Shown: in pieces, positions 2,085-11,801 of the stretch
Layout of the letters: every line of letters starts with the position of its first letter
How positions within the stretch are numbered: position 1 is the stretch's first letter
UHGV virus genome: UHGV-0074586
Length of the DNA: 11,801 nucleotides
Strand: one strand, 5' to 3'
Source: a virus
Made by a program: the position numbers and the translations under genes
Notes under the pieces: generated by a model
What the model saw: the letters and a program-made list of their open reading frames with translations, nothing else
Database searches by the model: none
What the model was told of the DNA's origin: nothing

Positions 2085-2246
2085 ATGACAAAACGTCGTA
2101 AGAAATACCAGGAAAAAGAAGAGATTCGACACCCTGATTCACCTGAGGGATTAGTGGTAGCCGCAGCAAATAACAGGGCGTTCGCAGAGCGCCTTGTTGG
2201 TGTTTACAGACTAGCAAAAGCAGGAGTGAAACATGGGCGTCGTTAA
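2085..2246 (+). CDS. small basic hypothetical protein (53 aa) between cII and the replication genes
   Basis: AGGAG at 2075..2079 is 5 nt upstream of ATG 2085. Product MTKRRKKYQEKEEIRHPDSPEGLVVAAANNRAFAERLVGVYRLAKAGVKHGRR. Overlaps the O-like start by 14 nt. Below the ORF-track size cutoff. Confidence 0.4.
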   Translation: MTKRRKKYQEKEEIRHPDSPEGLVVAAANNRAFAERLVGVYRLAKAGVKHGRR

Positions 2247-3123
2247 GTTAGCTGATTACAGGCATAACCCTGTACAACATCAGGAGGCATCCAGTATGGG
2301 GTATGTCTCTATACACCGCCAGTTTATGGACAGCAGGCTCTATAAGGACTCTCAGGCAGTACATCTTTGGCTTCACTTAATCCTCAAGGCTAATCACGAA
2401 TCTACTGTCGTCAATACGGATATCGGTCCGATAACTGTTGATCGCGGTCAGATGATAACTGGACGCCCGTCGCTGGTCAGAGAAACATTCATCCCCGACA
2501 ACAAAGTTCGGAGCTTATTACGGACTTTTGAGTCGAAAGGGATGCTTAATATTTGCTCGATGGGGAAGAAATTTAGCCTGTTTACAATCGTTAAATATGA
2601 CGATTTTCAGGCAAAAAATTGTCCAACGGTTGTCCAACGGTTGTCCAACGCAAACACCAGTAATGGCGAGGCTCTCAGCGGAGATTGTCCAACGGTTGTC
2701 CAACGGTTGTCCATAAACAATAATATAAATAATATCTCTAATACTGACGTATTAGAGAGTGCCACAGCAGACAAAAAGTCTGACAAGAAAAAACCTTCCG
2801 TTAGCTGTCAGGATGTTGTCGATGCTTACCACGAAATCCTTCCTGAAGCGCCAAGAATCCGCGCACTGAATGACAAGCGTAAAAACCAGATCCGAACGTT
2901 CTGGCGCAAAGCCGGAGTGATAACCCGCCAGCTTGACGGGCATGGGTTCACGATGCAGGACTGGAGAAATTATTTGAGCTACGTAGGCGAAAATTGCCGA
3001 TGGATGTTCGAAGAGCGTCCAAACCATCAACGCGGAACCGTCTGGCACAAAAAGGGATTTGATTTCCTGCTTAACGACAATACCTACCTGAAAGTTCGTG
3101 AGGGTGAACACGATGACCGATAA
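2233..3123 (+). CDS. O-like replication initiation protein (iteron-binding), origin embedded in the gene
   Basis: 296 aa. AGGAG at 2222..2226 precedes ATG 2233. Position after cII, internal iterons and translational coupling to a DnaB-type helicase indicate a lambda O / P22 gp18 analogue. Not sequence-similar to lambda O as far as I can recall. Confidence 0.7.
   Translation: MGVVKLADYRHNPVQHQEASSMGYVSIHRQFMDSRLYKDSQAVHLWLHLILKANHESTVVNTDIGPITVDRGQMITGRPSLVRETFIPDNKVRSLLRTFESKGMLNICSMGKKFSLFTIVKYDDFQAKNCPTVVQRLSNANTSNGEALSGDCPTVVQRLSINNNINNISNTDVLESATADKKSDKKKPSVSCQDVVDAYHEILPEAPRIRALNDKRKNQIRTFWRKAGVITRQLDGHGFTMQDWRNYLSYVGENCRWMFEERPNHQRGTVWHKKGFDFLLNDNTYLKVREGEHDDR
2619..2717. repeat. origin iterons: two clusters of three tandem 11-bp repeats TTGTCCAACGG (2619..2651 and 2685..2717)
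   Basis: Direct repeats with 11-bp periodicity, last copy of each cluster degenerate, clusters separated by about 33 bp, followed by an AT-rich stretch. They fall in the linker of the O-like protein (repeated translation PTVVQRLSN). Confidence 0.8.
2713..2760. promoter_or_regulatory. AT-rich DNA-unwinding-element-like tract flanking the iterons
   Basis: ataaacaataatataaataatatctctaatactgacgtattagagag is almost pure A/T directly 3' of the iterons, the classic lambdoid ori layout. Confidence 0.5.
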
Positions 3124-4549: not shown

Positions 4550-4653
4550 TGACCATCTACATCACTGAGCTAATAGCAGGGTTATCGTTACTAATGGTTC
4601 TTACTGTATATATTATTAAGTATATTCTTTATGCGAATAAAAAAACTAATTGA
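4549..4653 (+). CDS. 34-aa hydrophobic single-pass peptide, translationally coupled to the helicase stop
   Basis: ATG 4549 overlaps the helicase TGA (4547..4549) with AGGAGG at 4538..4543. Product MTIYITELIAGLSLLMVLTVYIIKYILYANKKTN. Caveat: AT-rich DNA yields hydrophobic ORFs by chance. Confidence 0.3.
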   Translation: MTIYITELIAGLSLLMVLTVYIIKYILYANKKTN

Positions 4654-5242
4654 TCACGATGAGCTTCTGTCAACATTATCATATGACTCAGAAACAGGAA
4701 TATTTAAATGGCTAAAAACAAATTCAGTAGTAAGAGTAAAAGGTAGTATTGCTGGAGGTGTTAGTGGTGGTTATATATGCATTAGCATAAATAATGTTTT
4801 GTATTATGCGCATAGACTTGCTTGGTTCTATGTATACAAAAAATGGCCTCCTAAGTTTATTGATCATGTAAATGGGAACAGACTTGACAATAGGATTTCA
4901 AATCTAAGACTGGCAACAGAAGAGCAGAATGCAAGAAACATTGTAGGGAATAGGTTAAACACATCCGGTGCGATTGGAGTGTCTTGGTATAAGCCAACTG
5001 GCAGGTGGAAGTCTTATGTTGGTTATAAAAATAAGACAATATCGTTAGGGTATTTCGATAGCAAAGAAGATGCAGCATTCATAGCAGCACTAGCAAGAAA
5101 GAAACTATATGGAACTTATGCGAGTAAAGCACTTAATTGCGAGCATGAGCTTTTATCTCAATTTAATAATGATGAGGATAAACTTGCGGAATATCTTAAG
5201 GAAAAATCTAAAAGGACTCGAAAGCGTGTTAAAAAAAGATAA
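4631..5242 (+). CDS. HNH homing-type endonuclease with C-terminal AP2 DNA-binding domain
   Basis: HNH motif (YYAHRLAWF...IDHVNGNRLDNRISNLRLATEEQNARN) and AP2-like segment (GVSWYKPTGRWKSYVGYKNKTISLGYFDSKEDAAFIAA). The gene sits in a visibly AT-rich island unlike its neighbours. Confidence 0.85.
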   Translation: MRIKKLIDHDELLSTLSYDSETGIFKWLKTNSVVRVKGSIAGGVSGGYICISINNVLYYAHRLAWFYVYKKWPPKFIDHVNGNRLDNRISNLRLATEEQNARNIVGNRLNTSGAIGVSWYKPTGRWKSYVGYKNKTISLGYFDSKEDAAFIAALARKKLYGTYASKALNCEHELLSQFNNDEDKLAEYLKEKSKRTRKRVKKR

Positions 5243-5910: not shown

Positions 5911-6077
5911 TTGACCCAAATCGAAGTTACGAACAAGAAAGCGTCGAGCGGGCTTTAACGTGCGCTAACTGCGGTCAGAAGCTGCATGTGCTGGAAGTTC
6001 ACGTGTGTGAGCACTGCTGCGCAGAACTGATGGGCGATCCGAATAGCTCAATGTACGAGGAAGAAGACGATGAGTGA
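5907..6077 (+). CDS. ninF: NinF (small CxxC...CxxC protein)
   Basis: GTG start overlapping the ninE stop (GTGA). 56 aa ([55 protein letters not shown]). Below the ORF-track cutoff. Confidence 0.7.
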
Positions 6078-6792
6078 GTTAATGAATGGCAATGCCATCA
6101 AAATGACAAGCATTGAAATCGCTGAGTTGGTGGGTAAGCGTCATGACAATGTGAAACGTACCATCGAAACGCTGGCTAAAAATGGTGTTATCCGGCTTCC
6201 TCAAATTGAGGTTTCCGAAAGAATCAATAACTTAGGGTTCAATGTTCAGTACGAGCATTACGTCTTCGAGGGCGAACAAGGTAAGCGAGACAGTATTGTC
6301 GTTGTTGCCCAGTTGTCGCCAGAGTTCACCGCTCGCCTTGTTGACCGCTGGCGAGAGCTTGAAGAAACTGCGGTTAATATCCCCAAAACGCTACCAGAAG
6401 CGTTGCGCCTTGCTGCTGATCTTGCTGAGCAGAAAATGCAACTGGAAAACCAGCTCGCAATTGCCGCACCTAAAGTTGAGTTTGCCGATCGCGTTGGCGA
6501 GGCCAGCGGAATTTTGATTGGAAACTTTGCAAAGGTTGTTGGTATTGGTCCAAACAAACTGTTTGCGTGGATGCGCGATCACAAAATCCTTATTGCTTCA
6601 GGTTCCCGGCGCAATGTGCCAATGCAGGAATATATGGATCGCGGCTATTTCACAGTGAAAGAAACAGCGGTCAACACAAATCACGGAATACAGATATCGT
6701 TCACCACAAAAATCACCGGGCGTGGTCAACAGTGGCTGACCAGAAAGTTGCTCGATAACGGAATGCTGAAAGTAACAGGGGAGGCTGCTTAA
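6070..6792 (+). CDS. Rha-family regulatory protein with KilA-C/ANT-type C-terminal domain (antirepressor-like)
   Basis: 240 aa. N-terminal segment (IKMTSIEIAELVGKRHDNVKRTIETL) resembles the Rha domain; C-terminal half (NFAKVVGIGPNKLFAWMRDHKIL...EYMDRGYFTVKE...TTKITGRGQQWL) resembles the antirepressor C-terminal domain. Assigned from memory. Confidence 0.65.
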   Translation: MSELMNGNAIKMTSIEIAELVGKRHDNVKRTIETLAKNGVIRLPQIEVSERINNLGFNVQYEHYVFEGEQGKRDSIVVVAQLSPEFTARLVDRWRELEETAVNIPKTLPEALRLAADLAEQKMQLENQLAIAAPKVEFADRVGEASGILIGNFAKVVGIGPNKLFAWMRDHKILIASGSRRNVPMQEYMDRGYFTVKETAVNTNHGIQISFTTKITGRGQQWLTRKLLDNGMLKVTGEAA

Positions 6793-7441: not shown

Positions 7442-7626
7442 ACGCCACAATTCAAACGATACCAGAGCTTCTTATCCAGACACGAGGCAATCAGACCGAA
7501 GTGGCGAGGATGCTTTCCTGCGCAAGAGGAACAGTGCTCAAGTACAACCGAGACAGCAAAGGCGAGCTTCACGTAATAGTTAACGGCGTCCTGATGGTCA
7601 AACAGGGCAAGAGGGGAAGACGATGA
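7438..7626 (+). CDS. ninH: NinH
   Basis: 62 aa with the ...GNQTEVARMLSCARGTVLKY...VIVNGVLMV core matching lambda NinH. ATGA overlaps on both sides. Confidence 0.8.
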   Translation: MNATIQTIPELLIQTRGNQTEVARMLSCARGTVLKYNRDSKGELHVIVNGVLMVKQGKRGRR

Positions 7627-8111
7627 GCATAAGAGAACTAAACCTCACCAAAGAGCAGCACGAGTGGCTGAATGGCTGGCTTGAACTGTGGGGCGCATGG
7701 GTTTATTCAGGTCGTCTGGAAAAGCGCATGAGCAGCGTAATAGCGAAGTTCATGGAGAGCGTAGAGCCGGGAAGAGTTATGACAAGGCCAATGTGCAATG
7801 ATGATGATGGAATGTTGATTTCTCAGGTCGTCGATTCCGTCATGTACATTGACAAGAAAGCCTTTGGAATCCTCCTCAGCTACTACGCTCATGGCTCTTC
7901 CAAGCACGCCATTGCATCTTACTATCATCGCGTCGCAAGACCTCGCAAGATGTTATGCCGTGGCGGCGGGCGCATTCAAAAACCATCGCTCGCAACCTGT
8001 CGACGGGAAGTTGACGAAATCCTTAATGCCTCGTTGTTTATGATTTACCCGGTTCTGGATAGTGCGTTTAAAAACCGGAAACGTGTAGAGAAAATTAAAC
8101 ATGTAGCATAG
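7623..8111 (+). CDS. Q-like late-gene antiterminator (non-lambda Q type)
   Basis: 162 aa, last gene before the lysis region. WGAW...RPMCNDDDGMLIS...YYAHG motifs resemble the Q proteins of 933W/82-type phages, not lambda Q. Assigned from memory and position. Confidence 0.65.
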   Translation: MSIRELNLTKEQHEWLNGWLELWGAWVYSGRLEKRMSSVIAKFMESVEPGRVMTRPMCNDDDGMLISQVVDSVMYIDKKAFGILLSYYAHGSSKHAIASYYHRVARPRKMLCRGGGRIQKPSLATCRREVDEILNASLFMIYPVLDSAFKNRKRVEKIKHVA

Positions 8112-8117
8112 AACGTG

Positions 8118-8198
8118 TTGACATCATTGAGCAAATGAGCAACACTATTGGCATAAGCTGCCGTTAGTGACTCTTAAGTTGCAACGGTGGCTTTTTTT
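8118..8198 (+). promoter_or_regulatory. candidate late promoter (consensus -35 TTGACA at 8118..8123) followed by a hairpin plus T7 run (8157..8198)
   Basis: Perfect TTGACA 7 nt after the Q stop; no convincing -10. Stem GCTGCCGTT/AACGGTGGC (two G-U pairs, 17-nt loop) is followed by TTTTTTT ending 5 nt before tRNA 1. Confidence 0.3.
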
Positions 8199-8202
8199 AT
8201 TT

Positions 8203-8277
8203 GGGTCAGTCGTATAAAGGTCATTACTGAAGGCTGTTAACCTTCTTATCGTGGTTCGAGTCCACGCTGTCCCGCCA
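8203..8277 (+). tRNA. tRNA-Asn (anticodon GUU), phage-encoded
   Basis: Hand-folded cloverleaf: 7-bp acceptor stem with one T-T mismatch, perfect anticodon stem GAAGG/CCTTC with loop CTGTTAA, perfect T-arm CGTGG-TTCGAGT-CCACG, encoded CCA. The D-stem has only 3 pairs. Confidence 0.6.
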
Positions 8278-8282
8278 AATAT

Positions 8283-8358
8283 GCTGGTTTAGCTCCAATG
8301 GTAGAGCAGTCGCCTTGTAAGCGAATGGGTAGCGGTTCAAGTCCGTTAACCAGCACCA
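8283..8358 (+). tRNA. tRNA-Thr (anticodon UGU), phage-encoded
   Basis: Hand-folded cloverleaf: perfect acceptor stem GCTGGTT/AACCAGC, D-arm GCTC-CAATGGTA-GAGC, anticodon loop CTTGTAA, T-arm AGCGG-TTCAAGT-CCGTT, discriminator A and CCA. Confidence 0.7.
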
Positions 8359-8519
8359 TAACTGAGCCGTAGCCACTGGCTATCCTGAATTCATCAGTGA
8401 TAGTTATGCTGCGGCCTTCTACACATGACCTTCGTGAAAGCGGGTGGTTCAATTCTGCTGCCTTCTTCACGTTAAAAGAGGAATTAGGCTTCGAAAATGC
8501 AAAAACTTGCAAAAATGAC

Positions 8520-8548
8520 TTGAAAACGAGTTTTGAAACTGCATAATT
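8520..8548 (+). promoter_or_regulatory. sigma70-like promoter (TTGAAA, 16-bp spacer, CATAAT) preceded by phased A-tracts
   Basis: -35 at 8520..8525, -10 at 8542..8547 with a TG just upstream. The preceding 40 bp holds repeated TGCAAAAA/TTGAAAAC A-tracts at roughly helical phasing (8492..8526). Confidence 0.35.
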
Positions 8549-8630
8549 CCTATATGCTCGGACGTCAAAGGCGAAAGAGCTTACCCACCAGCGAAGATGC
8601 CTTGTGCGGAGCGGTGGGAAACACATTCAA

Positions 8631-8658
8631 GCCCTTGCAGAAATGCAGGGGCTTTTTT
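8631..8658 (+). terminator. strong rho-independent terminator in the leader upstream of the insertion operon
   Basis: 9-bp stem GCCCTTGCA/TGCAGGGGC (one G-U pair) with GAAA tetraloop, then TTTTTT. It lies 30 nt upstream of the first operon ATG and inside the ORF-track 5' extension that starts at TTG 8533. Confidence 0.7.
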
Positions 8659-8688
8659 ATTGGCTCAGTGCCACCAGGTGAACACCGT

Positions 8689-9240
8689 ATGCACACGGCG
8701 ATCATTTGCGCTTCCGGACCTTCCCTCACCCACGACGACTGCCAGAAAGCCATTGGCGCTGGATTACCCGTTATTGCGGTGAATTCTTCATGGCGCGCGG
8801 TGCCGGGATGCTCTCACATTTACGCGGGTGATCTGCGCTGGTGGGATGTGAACATTCCCGCGCTGCCCGATGGCCCCGAACGCTGGTCATGTAACCGGAG
8901 AGCACACACCCGATACGGCGTGAGCCTCTTCCCGACAGATACCAGCGGCACATTCAATTCGGGGCAGAGAGCAATCCTGTTCGCTCACTGGCTGGGTGCC
9001 AGTAGCATCATCCTGCTGGGCTTCGATTGCTCAATCTCAAACGGTAGTCACTGGCACGGCGATCACACAGTCCTCGATAACCCGACAGCAGCGAACGTAA
9101 AGCGCTGGCATGGCGAGTTTGCCCGGGTTGCGGCGCAGCTGCGTGGAAGCGTCAATATCATCAACAGCAGCCGCCAGACGGCGCTTAATTGCTTTCGTCG
9201 CTTACCTCTTGAAGCTGCGATCAGCGAGGTTACATGCTGA
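8689..9240 (+). CDS. hypothetical protein with Cst/GT42-like (DUF115/MptE-like) CMP-ulosonate transferase-fold signatures
   Basis: 183 aa from ATG 8689 (AGGTGA 7 nt upstream). IICASGPSL...PVIAVNSSW and FNSGQRAILFAHWLGASSIILLGFDCSISNGSHWHGDH parallel the GNGPSL, RCN, TSG...LGY...LSGIDFY and SHYIGH motifs of Campylobacter Cst-type sialyltransferases as I recall them. Fold-level inference only. Confidence 0.45.
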   Translation: MHTAIICASGPSLTHDDCQKAIGAGLPVIAVNSSWRAVPGCSHIYAGDLRWWDVNIPALPDGPERWSCNRRAHTRYGVSLFPTDTSGTFNSGQRAILFAHWLGASSIILLGFDCSISNGSHWHGDHTVLDNPTAANVKRWHGEFARVAAQLRGSVNIINSSRQTALNCFRRLPLEAAISEVTC

Positions 9241-10175
9241 ATCCTCCGATTTACATCGATGGCATGCTGGGAATGGGAGATACCATTTACCAGCGCGCTT
9301 TCGTCAAACAACTGCCTGCTGGGACATTCATTAAGACGGCATGGCCGGAGCTTTACGAAGATCTGCCGGTGAAAGTTGTCCGAAGTGACACCACGCTCAG
9401 AACGCAGCGTAAAAATGAGTTTCGCAGTTCGGCAAAGTTTTATCCGCCGCCATCGCCACGACAGACGAAGCGAATATTTTACGGACCGTATGATCTGCGG
9501 CGCGGTTCGATATTTGATGCGATGCGACGCCAGTTCGGCGTAACGCCAGCAGCGCTTGATTTGCCATCCTTTGGCCCGTCGCAGTTTACGCACCAAAAGC
9601 CGATCGCCGTTATCCGTCCGGCAACGGTTCGTTCTGAATGGCGTAGCGACTCCCGAAACCCTGACCCCGATTACCTCCTGCGCGCATCGAGAATCCTGCG
9701 GAAACATTTCTGCGTGATTAGCGTTGCTGATTTGCAGGACGGGGAAGAGTGGCTGGTGGGCGAAGAACCAGAGGCGGATCTGAAAATGCACGCTGGCGAG
9801 CTCAATATCAAAGAGCTGATGCGCCTGGTTGAGCATGCCGCTGTCGTGGTTACGCCTGTTGGCTGGGCGCTGCCCGCTGCCATTGCGTACAAAACACCTG
9901 TTTACGTTGTCGCTGGTGGGCGCGGTGGGCATAACGCTCCCGAGATAGTCACCGATCCGGCGATGGATTTATCCCGCGTTGGCTGGGCAATCCCGGACAA
10001 TTATTGTCGCTGCGAAGCGTGGGATCACCATTGCGACAAACGCATCTTCAACTTTGATTCAAAATTCGAGACATGGCTGAATGAAGTCGTTTTATCAGGA
10101 ACTGAACAGCGGGCTGGTATTCCTCCCGGAGCTGGGCATCGGTCGTTATCCGGTTCCGGCATCACGCCCGTATGA
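9234..10175 (+). CDS. hypothetical protein with glycosyltransferase family 9 (ADP-heptose:LPS heptosyltransferase)-like fold; 3' boundary uncertain
   Basis: ATG overlaps the upstream stop (ATGCTGA). N-terminal IYIDGMLGMGDTIYQRAFVKQL and C-terminal ELNIKELMRLVEHAAVVVTPVGWALPAAIAYKTPVYVVAGG follow the GT9 pattern, but the canonical DTGPMHLAAA motif is replaced by TPVGWALPAAIA. The ORF runs 95 nt into the next gene. Confidence 0.45.
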   Translation: MLNPPIYIDGMLGMGDTIYQRAFVKQLPAGTFIKTAWPELYEDLPVKVVRSDTTLRTQRKNEFRSSAKFYPPPSPRQTKRIFYGPYDLRRGSIFDAMRRQFGVTPAALDLPSFGPSQFTHQKPIAVIRPATVRSEWRSDSRNPDPDYLLRASRILRKHFCVISVADLQDGEEWLVGEEPEADLKMHAGELNIKELMRLVEHAAVVVTPVGWALPAAIAYKTPVYVVAGGRGGHNAPEIVTDPAMDLSRVGWAIPDNYCRCEAWDHHCDKRIFNFDSKFETWLNEVVLSGTEQRAGIPPGAGHRSLSGSGITPV

Positions 10176-10690
10176 CGAGCAGTATTTCGCGAAGTATCAG
10201 CAGCTTGCCGACACCGAAACGGGCAGAGCCTTAACGCAATCCCGTATTGAGCTGGTGGCGCGCCATTTTCACGGTCCTGTTCTCGACGTTGGTATCGGTG
10301 CCGGTCAGTTCGTCTCTACCCGACCGGGAACGCTTGGGTATGACGTTAATCCGGCTGGTATCGCCTGGCTGAACGAGCGGGGCGCATTCGCTGACCTCTA
10401 GTCAGGGGCGCGCGCTGACGATGTGGGATGTCCTGGAGCACATCGACGAGCCGGAGCTGGCGGTACAGCAGGCTACAGAGTTTGTTTTCGTGTCGATCCC
10501 CATTTTTACCGATGCCGGAGACATTCTTCGCTCGCACCATTTCAGGAAGAACGAGCACATCTGGTATTTCACTGACGACGGTATTAAGCGCTGGTTTGCA
10601 GAGCAGGGCTTCGAATGCGCTGAACAGAACACAATCGAATGCCAGTTAGGGCGTAAGGGCGTCGCTTCGTACGCTTTCCGCCGCGTTTAG
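10081..10690 (+). pseudogene. class I SAM-dependent methyltransferase split by a frameshift near 10395..10402
   Basis: ORF 10081..10401 carries motif I (VLDVGIGAGQF) and an acidic beta-2 end (GYDVNP). ORF 10421..10690 in another frame carries the DVLEH motif. The frame upstream of 10421 reads ...SSQGRALTMWDVLEH, so one indel just before the TAG at 10399..10401 would restore a single protein of about 200 aa. Confidence 0.6.
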
Positions 10691-10764
10691 TCCCCTCTTA
10701 GCCCATTGCATTTGGGTTTATTCCAGTTTCGCACACATCACCCGCAAACAGGCGAGGTCAACCT

Positions 10765-10923
10765 ATGAATAGCTCTCACGGGATTTTTGAACAAACCATG
10801 AAATGGATCGCGCTATATCTGCCGTCAGTTTACGCCGGGTTATGCGCTCTGGGCATCTCAGCGCTTATCGACATACGCGCAGGGAAGCCGAAACTCTACA
10901 CCGCCACTGGCGCGCTAAATTAA
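10765..10923 (+). CDS. 52-aa small membrane protein immediately upstream of the holin gene
   Basis: GAGGT at 10754..10758 is 6 nt upstream of ATG 10765. Product MNSSHGIFEQTMKWIALYLPSVYAGLCALGISALIDIRAGKPKLYTATGALN has one predicted TM helix. Its stop coincides with the point where lambda-like sequence resumes. Confidence 0.45.
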   Translation: MNSSHGIFEQTMKWIALYLPSVYAGLCALGISALIDIRAGKPKLYTATGALN

Positions 10924-10954
10924 ATAGAGCAAATCCCCTTATTGTGGGTAAGAC

Positions 10955-11278
10955 ATGAAGATGCCAGAAAAACATGACCTGTTAGCCGCCATTCTCGCGG
11001 CAAAGGAACAAGGCATCGGGGCAATCCTTGCGTTTGCAATGGCGTACCTTCGCGGCAGATATAATGGCGGTGCGTTTACAAAAACAGTAATCGACGCAAC
11101 GATGTGCGCCATTATCGCCTGGTTCATTCGTGACCTTCTCGACTTCGCCGGACTAAGTAGCAATCTCGCTTATATAACGAGCGTGTTCATCGGCTACATC
11201 GGTACTGACTCGATTGGTTCGCTTATCAAACGCTTCGCTGCTAAAAAAGCCGGAGTAGAAGATGGTGGAAATCAATAA
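10955..11278 (+). CDS. S: holin S (S107/S105 dual-start class I holin)
   Basis: 107 aa, essentially lambda S as I recall it. Met1-Lys2-Met3 dual-start motif at 10955..10963 and a CCCC...GGG stem upstream. Confidence 0.95.
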
Positions 11279-11738
11279 TCAACGTAAGGCGTTCCTCGAT
11301 ATGCTGGCGTGGTCAGAGGGAACTGATAACGGACGACAGAAAACCAGAAATCATGGTTATGACGTCATTGTAGGCGGAGAGCTATTCACTGATTACTCTG
11401 ATCACCCTCGCAAACTTGTCACGCTAAATCCGAAACTCAAATCAACAGCCGCCGGACGCTACCAGCTTCTTTCCCGTTGGTGGGATGCCTACCGCAAGCA
11501 GCTTGGCCTGAAAGACTTCTCTCCGAAAAGCCAGGACGCTGTGGCATTGCAACAGATTAAAGAGCGTGGCGCTTTACCGATGATTGACCGCGGTGATATT
11601 CGTCAGGCAATCGACCGTTGCAGCAATATCTGGGCTTCACTGCCGGGCGCTGGTTATGGCCAGTTCGAGCATAAGGCTGACAGCCTGATTGCAAAATTCA
11701 AAGAGGCTGGCGGAACGGTCAGAGAGATTGAGGTATGA
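11262..11738 (+). CDS. R: endolysin R (lytic transglycosylase)
   Basis: 158 aa, essentially lambda R as I recall it ([39 protein letters not shown]...). Start overlaps the end of S as in lambda. Confidence 0.95.
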
Positions 11739-11801
11739 GCAGAGTCACCGCGATTATCTCCGCTCTGGTTATCTGCATCATCGTCTGCCTGTCATGGGCT
11801 G
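11735..11801 (+). CDS. Rz: spanin Rz, 5' partial (runs off the right edge)
   Basis: ATGA overlap with the R stop. N-terminus [22 protein letters not shown] matches the lambda Rz signal-anchor. Confidence 0.85.
   Translation, partial: MSRVTAIISALVICIIVCLSWA

Follow-up and report, generated by a model that had tools for sequence, protein, structure and literature searches.

We analyzed a stretch of 11,801 nucleotides from the virus genome UHGV-0074586 (hereafter, the window), which covers the immunity-to-lysis segment of a lambdoid phage. Between its antiterminator gene Q and its holin gene S lies a foreign block that holds three coupled genes. We call these genes A, B, and MT, and this cassette is the subject of the present study. 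The open reading frames (ORFs) listed in an earlier prediction made from the window (the original prediction) were all present at their positions, and the three genes of the cassette are as follows.

8689..9240, + strand: gene A, PmgO/DUF115-like (Maf/GT42-fold) putative glycosyltransferase, 183 amino acids (aa)
9234..10175, + strand: gene B, GT-B glycosyltransferase of the GT9 (heptosyltransferase) fold group, 313 aa
10081..10690, + strand: gene MT, class I S-adenosylmethionine (SAM)-dependent methyltransferase, a pseudogene here, with phrog_6564 matched on both halves

The product of gene A matched phrog_4603 (4e-49), which carries the label 'alpha-2,3-sialyltransferase' in PHROGs. Its score against the Pfam family MptE-like/DUF115 (PF01973) was 30.9 bits for a cut-off of 34.6 and covered residues 86-118 only; most homologs of A carry a precomputed PF01973 match. 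No sequence-level match of A to any solved structure was obtained in the PDB searches. The AlphaFold model of A, which was made from a 43-sequence alignment and had a predicted local distance difference test (pLDDT) value of 91.5, showed the fold of the Maf/GT42 catalytic domain, and the closest structure was the flagellin glycosyltransferase Maf. Thus, the Cst/GT42-like fold that had been proposed for A was supported by the comparison of models. The motifs SGPSL, NSG, GFDC, and HWHGxH were invariant. Maf is a multi-domain protein of about 600 aa in which other domains flank the DUF115 core, whereas A consists of the 183-aa core only, so that A cannot be counted as a Maf enzyme. Maf uses a CMP-nonulosonate as donor, and the donor of A may be a different one; most hosts make no sialic or pseudaminic acid.

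Gene B belongs to phrog_6804. We found no Pfam match at E <= 0.1, no NCBIfam match, and no PDB match for B, either with the sequence or with a 40-sequence profile, and the probabilities given by hhalign against the heptosyltransferases WaaC and WaaF were 0.5% and 7.5%, respectively. The assignment of B to GT9 (PF01075) at the sequence level therefore failed in Pfam, in phmmer and profile searches against the PDB, and in hhalign against WaaC and WaaF, and it is the fold alone that places B. The model of B, the pLDDT of which was above 91, has a GT-B fold that is closest to the solved GT9 structures, and its top match was the protein heptosyltransferase TibC. Invariant elements of B were G13-x-G15-D16 (40 homologs), LRTQ, RPxTxRxEW, GEL, and C258-x-C260-x4-H265-x-C267. 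The N-terminal GxGD resembles the GT9 catalytic motif, and the position of the GT9 'NDSG' was occupied by 'PVGW' in a weak alignment with WaaF. The original prediction had described B as a GT9-like protein with a degenerate active-site motif. The fold agrees with this description and 'PVGW' may be that motif, but membership in PF01075 by sequence was not obtained. The conserved core of B stops near residue 287, and the last 26 residues, which are unconserved and poorly modelled, exist because the frame of B runs into the MT gene.

The comparison of B with its structural neighbours showed several differences. TibC and Aah, as well as WaaC and WaaF, are GT9 enzymes of PF01075 families, whereas B has neither a PF01075 match nor a sequence match in the PDB. 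TibC and Aah are encoded beside their autotransporter substrate, and no such substrate gene was found near B in about 160 neighbourhoods, so that B is not a member of this group. TibC has a metal (iron) finger and forms a dodecamer; B has an invariant CxCx4HxC cluster. The trio differs from both Maf and TibC in that it lacks their substrate-docking parts and the neighbouring substrate genes.

Gene MT is broken in the window. Five base pairs (ACGCC) are deleted between positions 10399 and 10400, which creates a TAG at 10399-10401 and splits the gene into ORFs of 106 aa and 89 aa. The C-terminal piece scored 26.9 bits against PF13489 (cut-off 27), and the intact homolog in the E. coli relative L010, which is 204 aa long, scored 40.4 bits. 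The deletion was absent from four relatives, three of them by alignment and the fourth being the viral contig L013. MT of the window is therefore a member of the family without an intact frame, that is, a pseudogene, and the proposal that the third gene is a frameshifted SAM methyltransferase was confirmed by the PF13489 homolog and the 5-bp deletion. MT contained no DNA-methyltransferase motifs. A and B are intact in the window and are 96-100% identical to those of the relatives. Since MT is inactivated, the window phage makes at most an unmethylated product.

A overlaps B by 7 nucleotides and B overlaps MT by 95 nucleotides, which agrees with the tightly coupled operon of the original prediction. 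No hydrophobic segment was detected in A, B, or MT (maximum KD19 <= 1.6), and the three proteins are soluble as judged from their sequences.

The distribution of the cassette was examined at two levels. The DNA of the block was not found in 50,697 phage records, except for a 214-bp match to its leader in Citrobacter phage Omnitron. Among 5426 complete E. coli genomes, at least 80% of the block was present in four, with identities of 99.5%, 94.6%, and 82.3% (two genomes at the last value), and five E. coli records had a partial copy with about 80% identity. At the protein level, we collected two sets of loci from IMG/VR, namely the 80 best loci, in which B was 55-100% identical, and a second 80 around a divergent homolog. 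The order A-B-MT was identical in all 78 loci of the first set that covered all three genes, and MT overlapped the end of B in nearly all of them. In the divergent set, 64 of the 80 loci had the full order; in the remaining 16, the ORF calls were incomplete or came in another order, mostly at the ends of contigs or because of over-long ORFs. The order was also kept in phages PAJU2, Eowyn (as a stand-alone operon), and Mulvp2 and in the contig L093. De novo clustering of the neighbouring genes in the 80 enterobacterial and 80 divergent loci revealed no fourth gene that travels with the cassette, and only A, B, and MT were universal in these 160 loci.

Natural fusions were also found. A-B fusion proteins of about 500 aa exist, one of which is followed by MT in a siphophage structural operon, and B-family domains are fused to true GT9, LicD, and methyltransferase domains. 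The fusions of B to these three kinds of domain would, by their sequences, point to multi-step glycan assembly. Large fusions that contain a B-family domain are P0386, P0433, P0366, and P0396, and the types observed were a 1214-aa protein with a DUF115-like domain and three B/GT9-like domains, GT9 plus an intein (LAGLIDADG) plus B, LicD plus B, and methyltransferase plus B.

The median ratio of nonsynonymous to synonymous substitution rates (dN/dS) was 0.13 for A, 0.10 for B, and 0.14 for MT, and it was clear that all three genes are under strong purifying selection. It follows from the gene order, the overlapping frames, the natural A-B fusions, and the strong purifying selection that A, B, and MT act together.

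An exhaustive profile search showed that B forms a closed family, which comprises 863 clusters at 50% identity. The hosts of phages with the trio belong to Escherichia, Enterobacter, Salmonella, Klebsiella, Serratia, and Pseudomonas, and the homologs of A extend to phages P1 and P7 and the Caulobacter giant phages. These results showed that the operon is a mobile module conserved among phages that infect Gram-negative bacteria. Its sequence has been public in phages D3 (since about 2000), PAJU2, and Eowyn and in the PHROG families 4603, 6804, and 6564. Full-text literature searches, including those on D3, PAJU2, and pmgO/P/Q, found no functional study of these genes, and NCBIfam and PADLOC searches gave no matches. 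The original prediction did not recognize the combination as a described system, and this was right as to function and wrong as to sequence. That is, the trio is an uncharacterized system of which the sequence is already public, and the window holds one more, slightly damaged copy.

We then considered how the block came to its present position. The features that define it and its flanks are listed below.

8360..8447, + strand: left lambda-like flank, 93.2% identity with lambda 44945-45032
8448..8546, + strand: scar, last 33 codons of a donor Q-like antiterminator gene, from protein alignment with the 227-aa gene of the E. coli relatives L001 and L002
8520..8547, + strand: donor late-promoter-like site TTGAAA-16-CATAAT, 10/12 matches
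8629..8664, + strand: donor late terminator, an 11-bp stem (8629-8654) rich in guanine and cytosine (GC) plus U-run, from terminator scan and RNA fold
10765..10923, + strand: scar, first 51 codons of a donor 110-aa lambda-family holin, cut by the right junction
10918..11801, + strand: right lambda-like flank with S holin (10955-11278) and R endolysin (11262-11738), 97.5% identity with lambda 45149-46032

In lambda, the sequences matching the two flanks are 116 bp apart, and 2470 bp (8448-10917) stand there in the window; the E. coli prophage L009, which represents the empty site, gave the same picture as lambda at the junctions. The left flank is 97-100% identical to many lambdoid and P22-like phages and is named 'bsq3 boundary sequence' in the annotation of CUS-3, and the S holin of the right flank matched PF05106 with 105.3 bits. 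The GC content was 0.53-0.59 in the block as compared with 0.45-0.51 in the flanks. The lambda-like flanks, the boundaries at 8447 and about 10917, and the richness of the block in GC had all been predicted; the alignment with lambda placed the boundaries within a few bases of those positions.

The DNA homology to L001 begins at window position 8444, within the last 100 bp of its 227-aa Q-like gene. This gene, which lies 5' of the cassette in L001 and L002, matched phrog_753 ('anti-termination protein Q-like') with 9.5e-57. In the E. coli relatives L001, L002, and L010, the DNA corresponding to the block has a Q-type gene on one side and a holin gene on the other. At the other end, the homology to the donor phages stops at window position 10918, in the middle of the holin. 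The 52-aa ORF there shares 98% identity with residues 1-51 of the L010 and L001 holins and has one extra codon. The full-length donor-type holin matched PF05106 with 59.2 bits, whereas the 52-aa ORF gave only a weak match to phrog_126 (E 0.0058). Since residues 1-51 of 110 remain, it is not a full-length lambda-family holin (PF05106, about 105-110 aa). The original prediction had counted this ORF as a small membrane protein and the fourth gene of the block. The ORF is real, but it is a truncated donor holin; we therefore rejected a specialised small membrane protein at 10765-10923, and three cassette genes are left. The viral contig L013 shares 99.3% identity with the window over 8333-11801; both of its junctions are the same, transfer RNAs (tRNAs) are absent, and its MT is intact.

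These results showed that the block 8448-10917 is a recombinational mosaic replacement of the Q-S interval by the equivalent interval of another lambdoid phage, and that the imported interval consists of the 3' end of a Q-like gene, a late promoter with its terminator, the operon of three genes, and the 5' part of a holin gene. The block had been regarded as a foreign accessory insertion at a cargo site between Q and S; foreign and accessory it is, but with gene stumps at both ends it is not a self-contained insertion.

The site at 8520..8547 was the only sigma-70-like site within 8050-11000, and because its position follows the donor Q gene, it probably acts as the donor late promoter. The donor terminator lies 35 nucleotides upstream of gene A, and the leader had a folding energy of -42.7 kcal/mol (z = -3.2). 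A promoter followed by a short terminated leader RNA is the layout of a lambdoid late promoter. A promoter-like element and a leader terminator are thus present as had been claimed, but they are not the cassette's own, since they form the donor late unit and are preceded by the donor Q-like tail. For the same reason, we rejected an independent moron promoter. Upstream of them stand the resident elements.

7623..8111, + strand: resident antiterminator gene Q (Pfam PF06530 Phage_antitermQ, 87.4 bits), which drives late transcription into the block
8155..8200, + strand: resident late terminator (tR'-like hairpin plus U-run) directly 3' of Q, from RNA fold

The hairpin of the latter (-20.2 kcal/mol, z = -3.4) is followed by U7 and is kept in L009, and it is presumably the terminator of the resident late promoter. 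The resident late-leader unit (window 8118-8200) comprises TTGACA directly after the Q stop codon and the hairpin at 8155-8193 with its U-run. The window therefore has two tandem late-leader units, the resident one (8118-8200) and the imported donor one (8520-8664), and the cognate Q of the latter is a stump of 33 codons. Late transcripts must accordingly read through both terminators.

No promoter-like site was found between the last terminator and gene A. Since two intrinsic terminators precede the cassette and no such site lies before A, transcription of the cassette is expected only from Q-modified polymerase in late lytic growth; late-only expression is thus predicted from the sequence. 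Four independent late settings were observed, and in every context examined the cassette is placed under late lytic transcription. In enterobacterial lambdoids it stands either between Q and the holin gene, where tR'-type terminators precede it in the window, or between the lysis genes and terminase; in D3, PAJU2, L093, and many environmental siphophages it is found among the head-tail connector genes; and in P1 the homologs pmgO/pmgP are under the late promoter LPpmgL and C1 operators. Three families of Q, two types of endolysin, and at least two types of head were represented among the enterobacterial lambdoid carriers. In the divergent set, the gene just 5' of A is head-tail adaptor-like by sequence in our judgement and had no Pfam match. 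An E. coli prophage, I3 (L176 8197-10916), has the cassette together with a contractile-tail module and, at its end, a gtrA-gtrB-gtr(type) O-antigen glucosylation operon; it thus carries two unrelated glycan-related modules, A-B-MT and one of the gtrABC type.

Proteins with collagen repeats (Pfam Collagen; about 207 aa or 420-680 aa) were observed between the portal and adaptor genes, just 5' of A-B-MT, in the PAJU2-like environmental siphophages L106, L110, L111, L119, L120, L137, and L141; examples of their coordinates are L111 3835-5679 and L115 5951-6583. They have a weak CBM_5_12-like C-terminus in common with PAJU2 gp07. A protein with at least 8 GXY repeats was present in 33 of the 80 PAJU2-like divergent loci versus none of the 80 enterobacterial loci. 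The collagen-repeat proteins are possible substrates in the PAJU2-like clade. As a general substrate they were rejected, because no homolog was found in the enterobacterial loci, the I3 prophage, D3, Mulvp2, P1, phiNP, or Eowyn.

The other features of the window are as follows.

5' of Q: genes for an S24-type repressor, Cro, CII, an O-like protein, DnaB helicase, HNH-AP2 endonuclease, NinB, KilAC antirepressor, YbcO, and RusA
8203..8358, + strand: tRNA-Asn(GTT) and tRNA-Thr(TGT), from ARAGORN and Rfam RF00005, outside the cassette

The tRNA pair follows the resident late terminator and precedes the conserved boundary sequence. In L013 and L009, which are the closest relatives, this position is occupied by about 177 bp of unrelated sequence, so that the pair appears to be a separate recent insertion or replacement. 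A modification of the adjacent tRNAs by the cassette, one of three functions put forward in the original prediction, was rejected, since the cassette carriers L001, L002, L010, and L013 and the reference phages have no adjacent tRNAs. Further upstream, the ORF at 4631-5242, which has a low GC content (0.33-0.39) and lies between the DnaB-like helicase and NinB genes, encodes an HNH_3 plus AP2-domain protein and looks like a homing endonuclease. The O-like replication gene (2233-3123) has no Pfam match and shows tandem coding repeats (CPTVVQRLSN x2), with mirrored ORFs on both strands; the repeats are probably origin iterons.

Next, we compared the cassette with known systems. The Pseudomonas phages PAJU2 (gp10-gp11-gp12) and D3 (orf7, orf12, orf13), the Klebsiella jumbo phage Eowyn (gp005-003), and the Enterobacter phage Mulvp2 have the same three protein families as the window, with identities of 44-53% for B and 32-46% for A. 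In PAJU2, Eowyn, and Mulvp2, the genes overlap in the order A-B-MT as in the window; in D3, four genes separate A from B-MT, whereas the three genes of the window are contiguous. The genes of PAJU2 and D3 are within the head-tail connector cluster and those of the window are between Q and S. The annotations of these homologs are 'hypothetical', 'alpha-2,3-sialyltransferase', 'GT9', and 'structural protein'. The sets pmgO-pmgP-(ppp)-pmgQ of P1 and that of Citrobacter phage phiNP are under late control like the cassette of the window, but their second transferase family differs from B and they have no methyltransferase. PmgO shares 37% identity with A (phrog_4603); PmgP is a DUF115-like paralog, and PmgQ is a phrog_1962 glycosyltransferase. 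These sets represent a second cassette type, consisting of two DUF115-like paralogs and then a phrog_1962 glycosyltransferase (phiNP L008 6001-7758; P1 L007 4941-7499). In phiNP this set stands between the genes for lysis and those for terminase, and in P1 it is controlled by LPpmgL; the phiNP paralog at 6001-6528 has no annotation in its record.

Two systems of known function are instructive. The gtrABC/Oac genes for O-antigen conversion are, like the cassette, phage-borne glycan-modifying cargo of lambdoid and P22-like prophages. They encode membrane proteins, lie beside the attachment site, and are expressed in the lysogen, whereas the cassette has no hydrophobic segment and stands in a late operon behind terminators with no promoter-like site before A, and it is thus not of the gtrABC/Oac type. 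In mycobacteriophages, according to a summary of Freeman et al. 2023 (PMC11600133), the subunits of the capsid and the tail tube are modified by glycosyltransferases that are encoded beside an O-methyltransferase, and recognition by antibodies is dampened as a result. The composition of those virion-glycosylation cassettes, transferases plus a methyltransferase, matches that of the window; their host is an actinobacterium, whereas the hosts of the present cassette are Gram-negative.

The analysis showed that two transferase-fold enzymes and a methyltransferase are co-inherited, sometimes fused, under selection, and, by their sequences and positions, soluble and expressed late. We consider that the best overall explanation of these features is a late glycosylation and methylation of protein, possibly of virion protein, to which we give a probability of about 0.4. 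A and B may add two sugars in succession from nucleotide sugars, which would be supplied by the host because no genes for sugar-nucleotide synthesis travel with the cassette. The donors could be CMP-Kdo for A and ADP-heptose for B; both compounds agree with the fold families and occur in every host, but this is a guess. MT would then methylate the sugar product to give a short methylated glycan, as suggested by the fold families, the fusions to glycan-building domains, and the lack of sugar-nucleotide synthesis genes. The likeliest acceptor would be a protein that is made or present late in infection, possibly one of the virion. Such an acceptor is suggested by the top structural neighbours of A and B, which glycosylate proteins, namely flagellin and autotransporters, by the late timing, by the position of the genes within morphogenetic operons, by the label 'structural protein' of PAJU2 ORF010, and by the mycobacteriophage precedent. 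That the target is a protein or the virion is, in our estimation, tentative to much the same degree as the explanation as a whole. The fuller proposal, in which A and B form a new and widespread protein-glycosylation system that places a short methyl-capped glycan on virion proteins from CMP-Kdo and ADP-heptose, taken from the LPS (lipopolysaccharide)-core precursors of the host, is unlikely as it stands.

Several points weigh against this explanation. Structural operons can hold unrelated cargo genes. The virion types in which the cassette occurs are unrelated, namely those of HK97-like siphophages, of a lambdoid prophage with a contractile tail, and of jumbo myophages, and no partner or target gene travels with it in about 160 neighbourhoods, so that a host or generic target fits at least equally well. 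The LPS transferases score almost as high as TibC against the fold of B, and the donor sugar of B is uncertain because the GT9 'DSG' motif is missing in the weak profile alignment. The label of ORF010, the A homolog of PAJU2, was given by the depositors and is not traceable to data. In P1, both CRISPR interference (CRISPRi) and deletion showed that pmgO, pmgP, and pmgQ are dispensable for plaque formation (PMC10695390). No virion glycoproteins were seen when ten phages, none of which is a known carrier of the cassette, were surveyed by staining (PMC12894461), and we found no glycosylated virion of a Gram-negative phage in the literature searched.

The cassette might instead modify the inner core of host LPS or another envelope glycolipid with Kdo- or heptose-like sugars and a methyl group, and thereby alter the receptors for other phages (exclusion) or for the progeny, which would avoid adsorption to debris. 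We regard this as unlikely. Expression is predicted to be late-only in the contexts examined, with no promoter-like site between the terminators and A, so that lysogenic conversion is not expected, and late in infection little time is left for remodelling the LPS of the outer membrane. In addition, the virions of the carriers are so different that one common receptor is improbable, the I3 prophage has a separate conventional gtrABC conversion module, and the cassette proteins have no membrane segments. Late expression and independence of the virion type are expected of genes that modify phage DNA, and the enzymes may hypermodify the DNA before packaging, by base glycosylation with or without methylation, as a protection against restriction. 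DNA methylase genes stand at the same Q-S position in other lambdoid phages, such as dam in phiNP, and A and B are mildly basic (isoelectric point about 8.3). Known phages attach Kdo or heptose to 5-hydroxymethylcytosine (5hmC) by GT-B enzymes, but these modifications require a hydroxylating enzyme (bioRxiv 10.1101/2023.12.21.572611), and none accompanies the cassette. We judge a DNA target to be very improbable.

The target of the enzymes could also be a host protein or a small molecule, so that, for instance, a defence or stress pathway would be disabled late in infection, or A could be a pyrophosphokinase. There was no match to known defence-system families in PADLOC, counter-defence genes are usually early and not late, and glycan assembly is indicated by the A-B fusions and by those that join B to GT9, LicD, or methyltransferase domains; this explanation seems somewhat less likely than a modification of LPS. 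Lastly, the block in the window may be decaying cargo that was acquired by recombination and is no longer useful in this phage. The 5-bp deletion in MT, which the intact relatives lack, is consistent with decay, as are the gene fragments at both edges (Q-like tail and holin head) and the rarity of the block in E. coli, where it is found in the four genomes and five diverged records described above. On the other hand, A and B are intact and nearly identical to those of the relatives, and the family is under strong purifying selection. L013 has the same hybrid junctions with an intact MT, and the lesion in MT is therefore recent and limited to one gene. Decay thus appears improbable, more so than a host target. 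Among the three functions raised in the original prediction, a link to tRNAs was rejected, LPS conversion is disfavoured by late expression, solubility, and the separate gtrABC module, and a late modification of virion protein is, on our analysis, the best-supported idea that remains, unproven as it is.

The cassette is widespread and not a curiosity of one prophage; its order is kept, it is under purifying selection, and no member has an assigned function. In the literature searched, natural virion glycosylation has been described only in mycobacteriophages, where it blunts recognition by antibodies. If the proposal for A and B is true, their system would be the first natural virion glycosylation outside the actinobacteriophages, with relatives in P1 (PmgO/PmgP) and D3. 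A system of this kind in phages of Gram-negative hosts would be relevant to phage therapy (immunogenicity and clearance), to phage-host recognition, and to the annotation of thousands of 'hypothetical' late genes. Another target, whether LPS, DNA, or a host molecule, would equally define a new late-acting function of phages.

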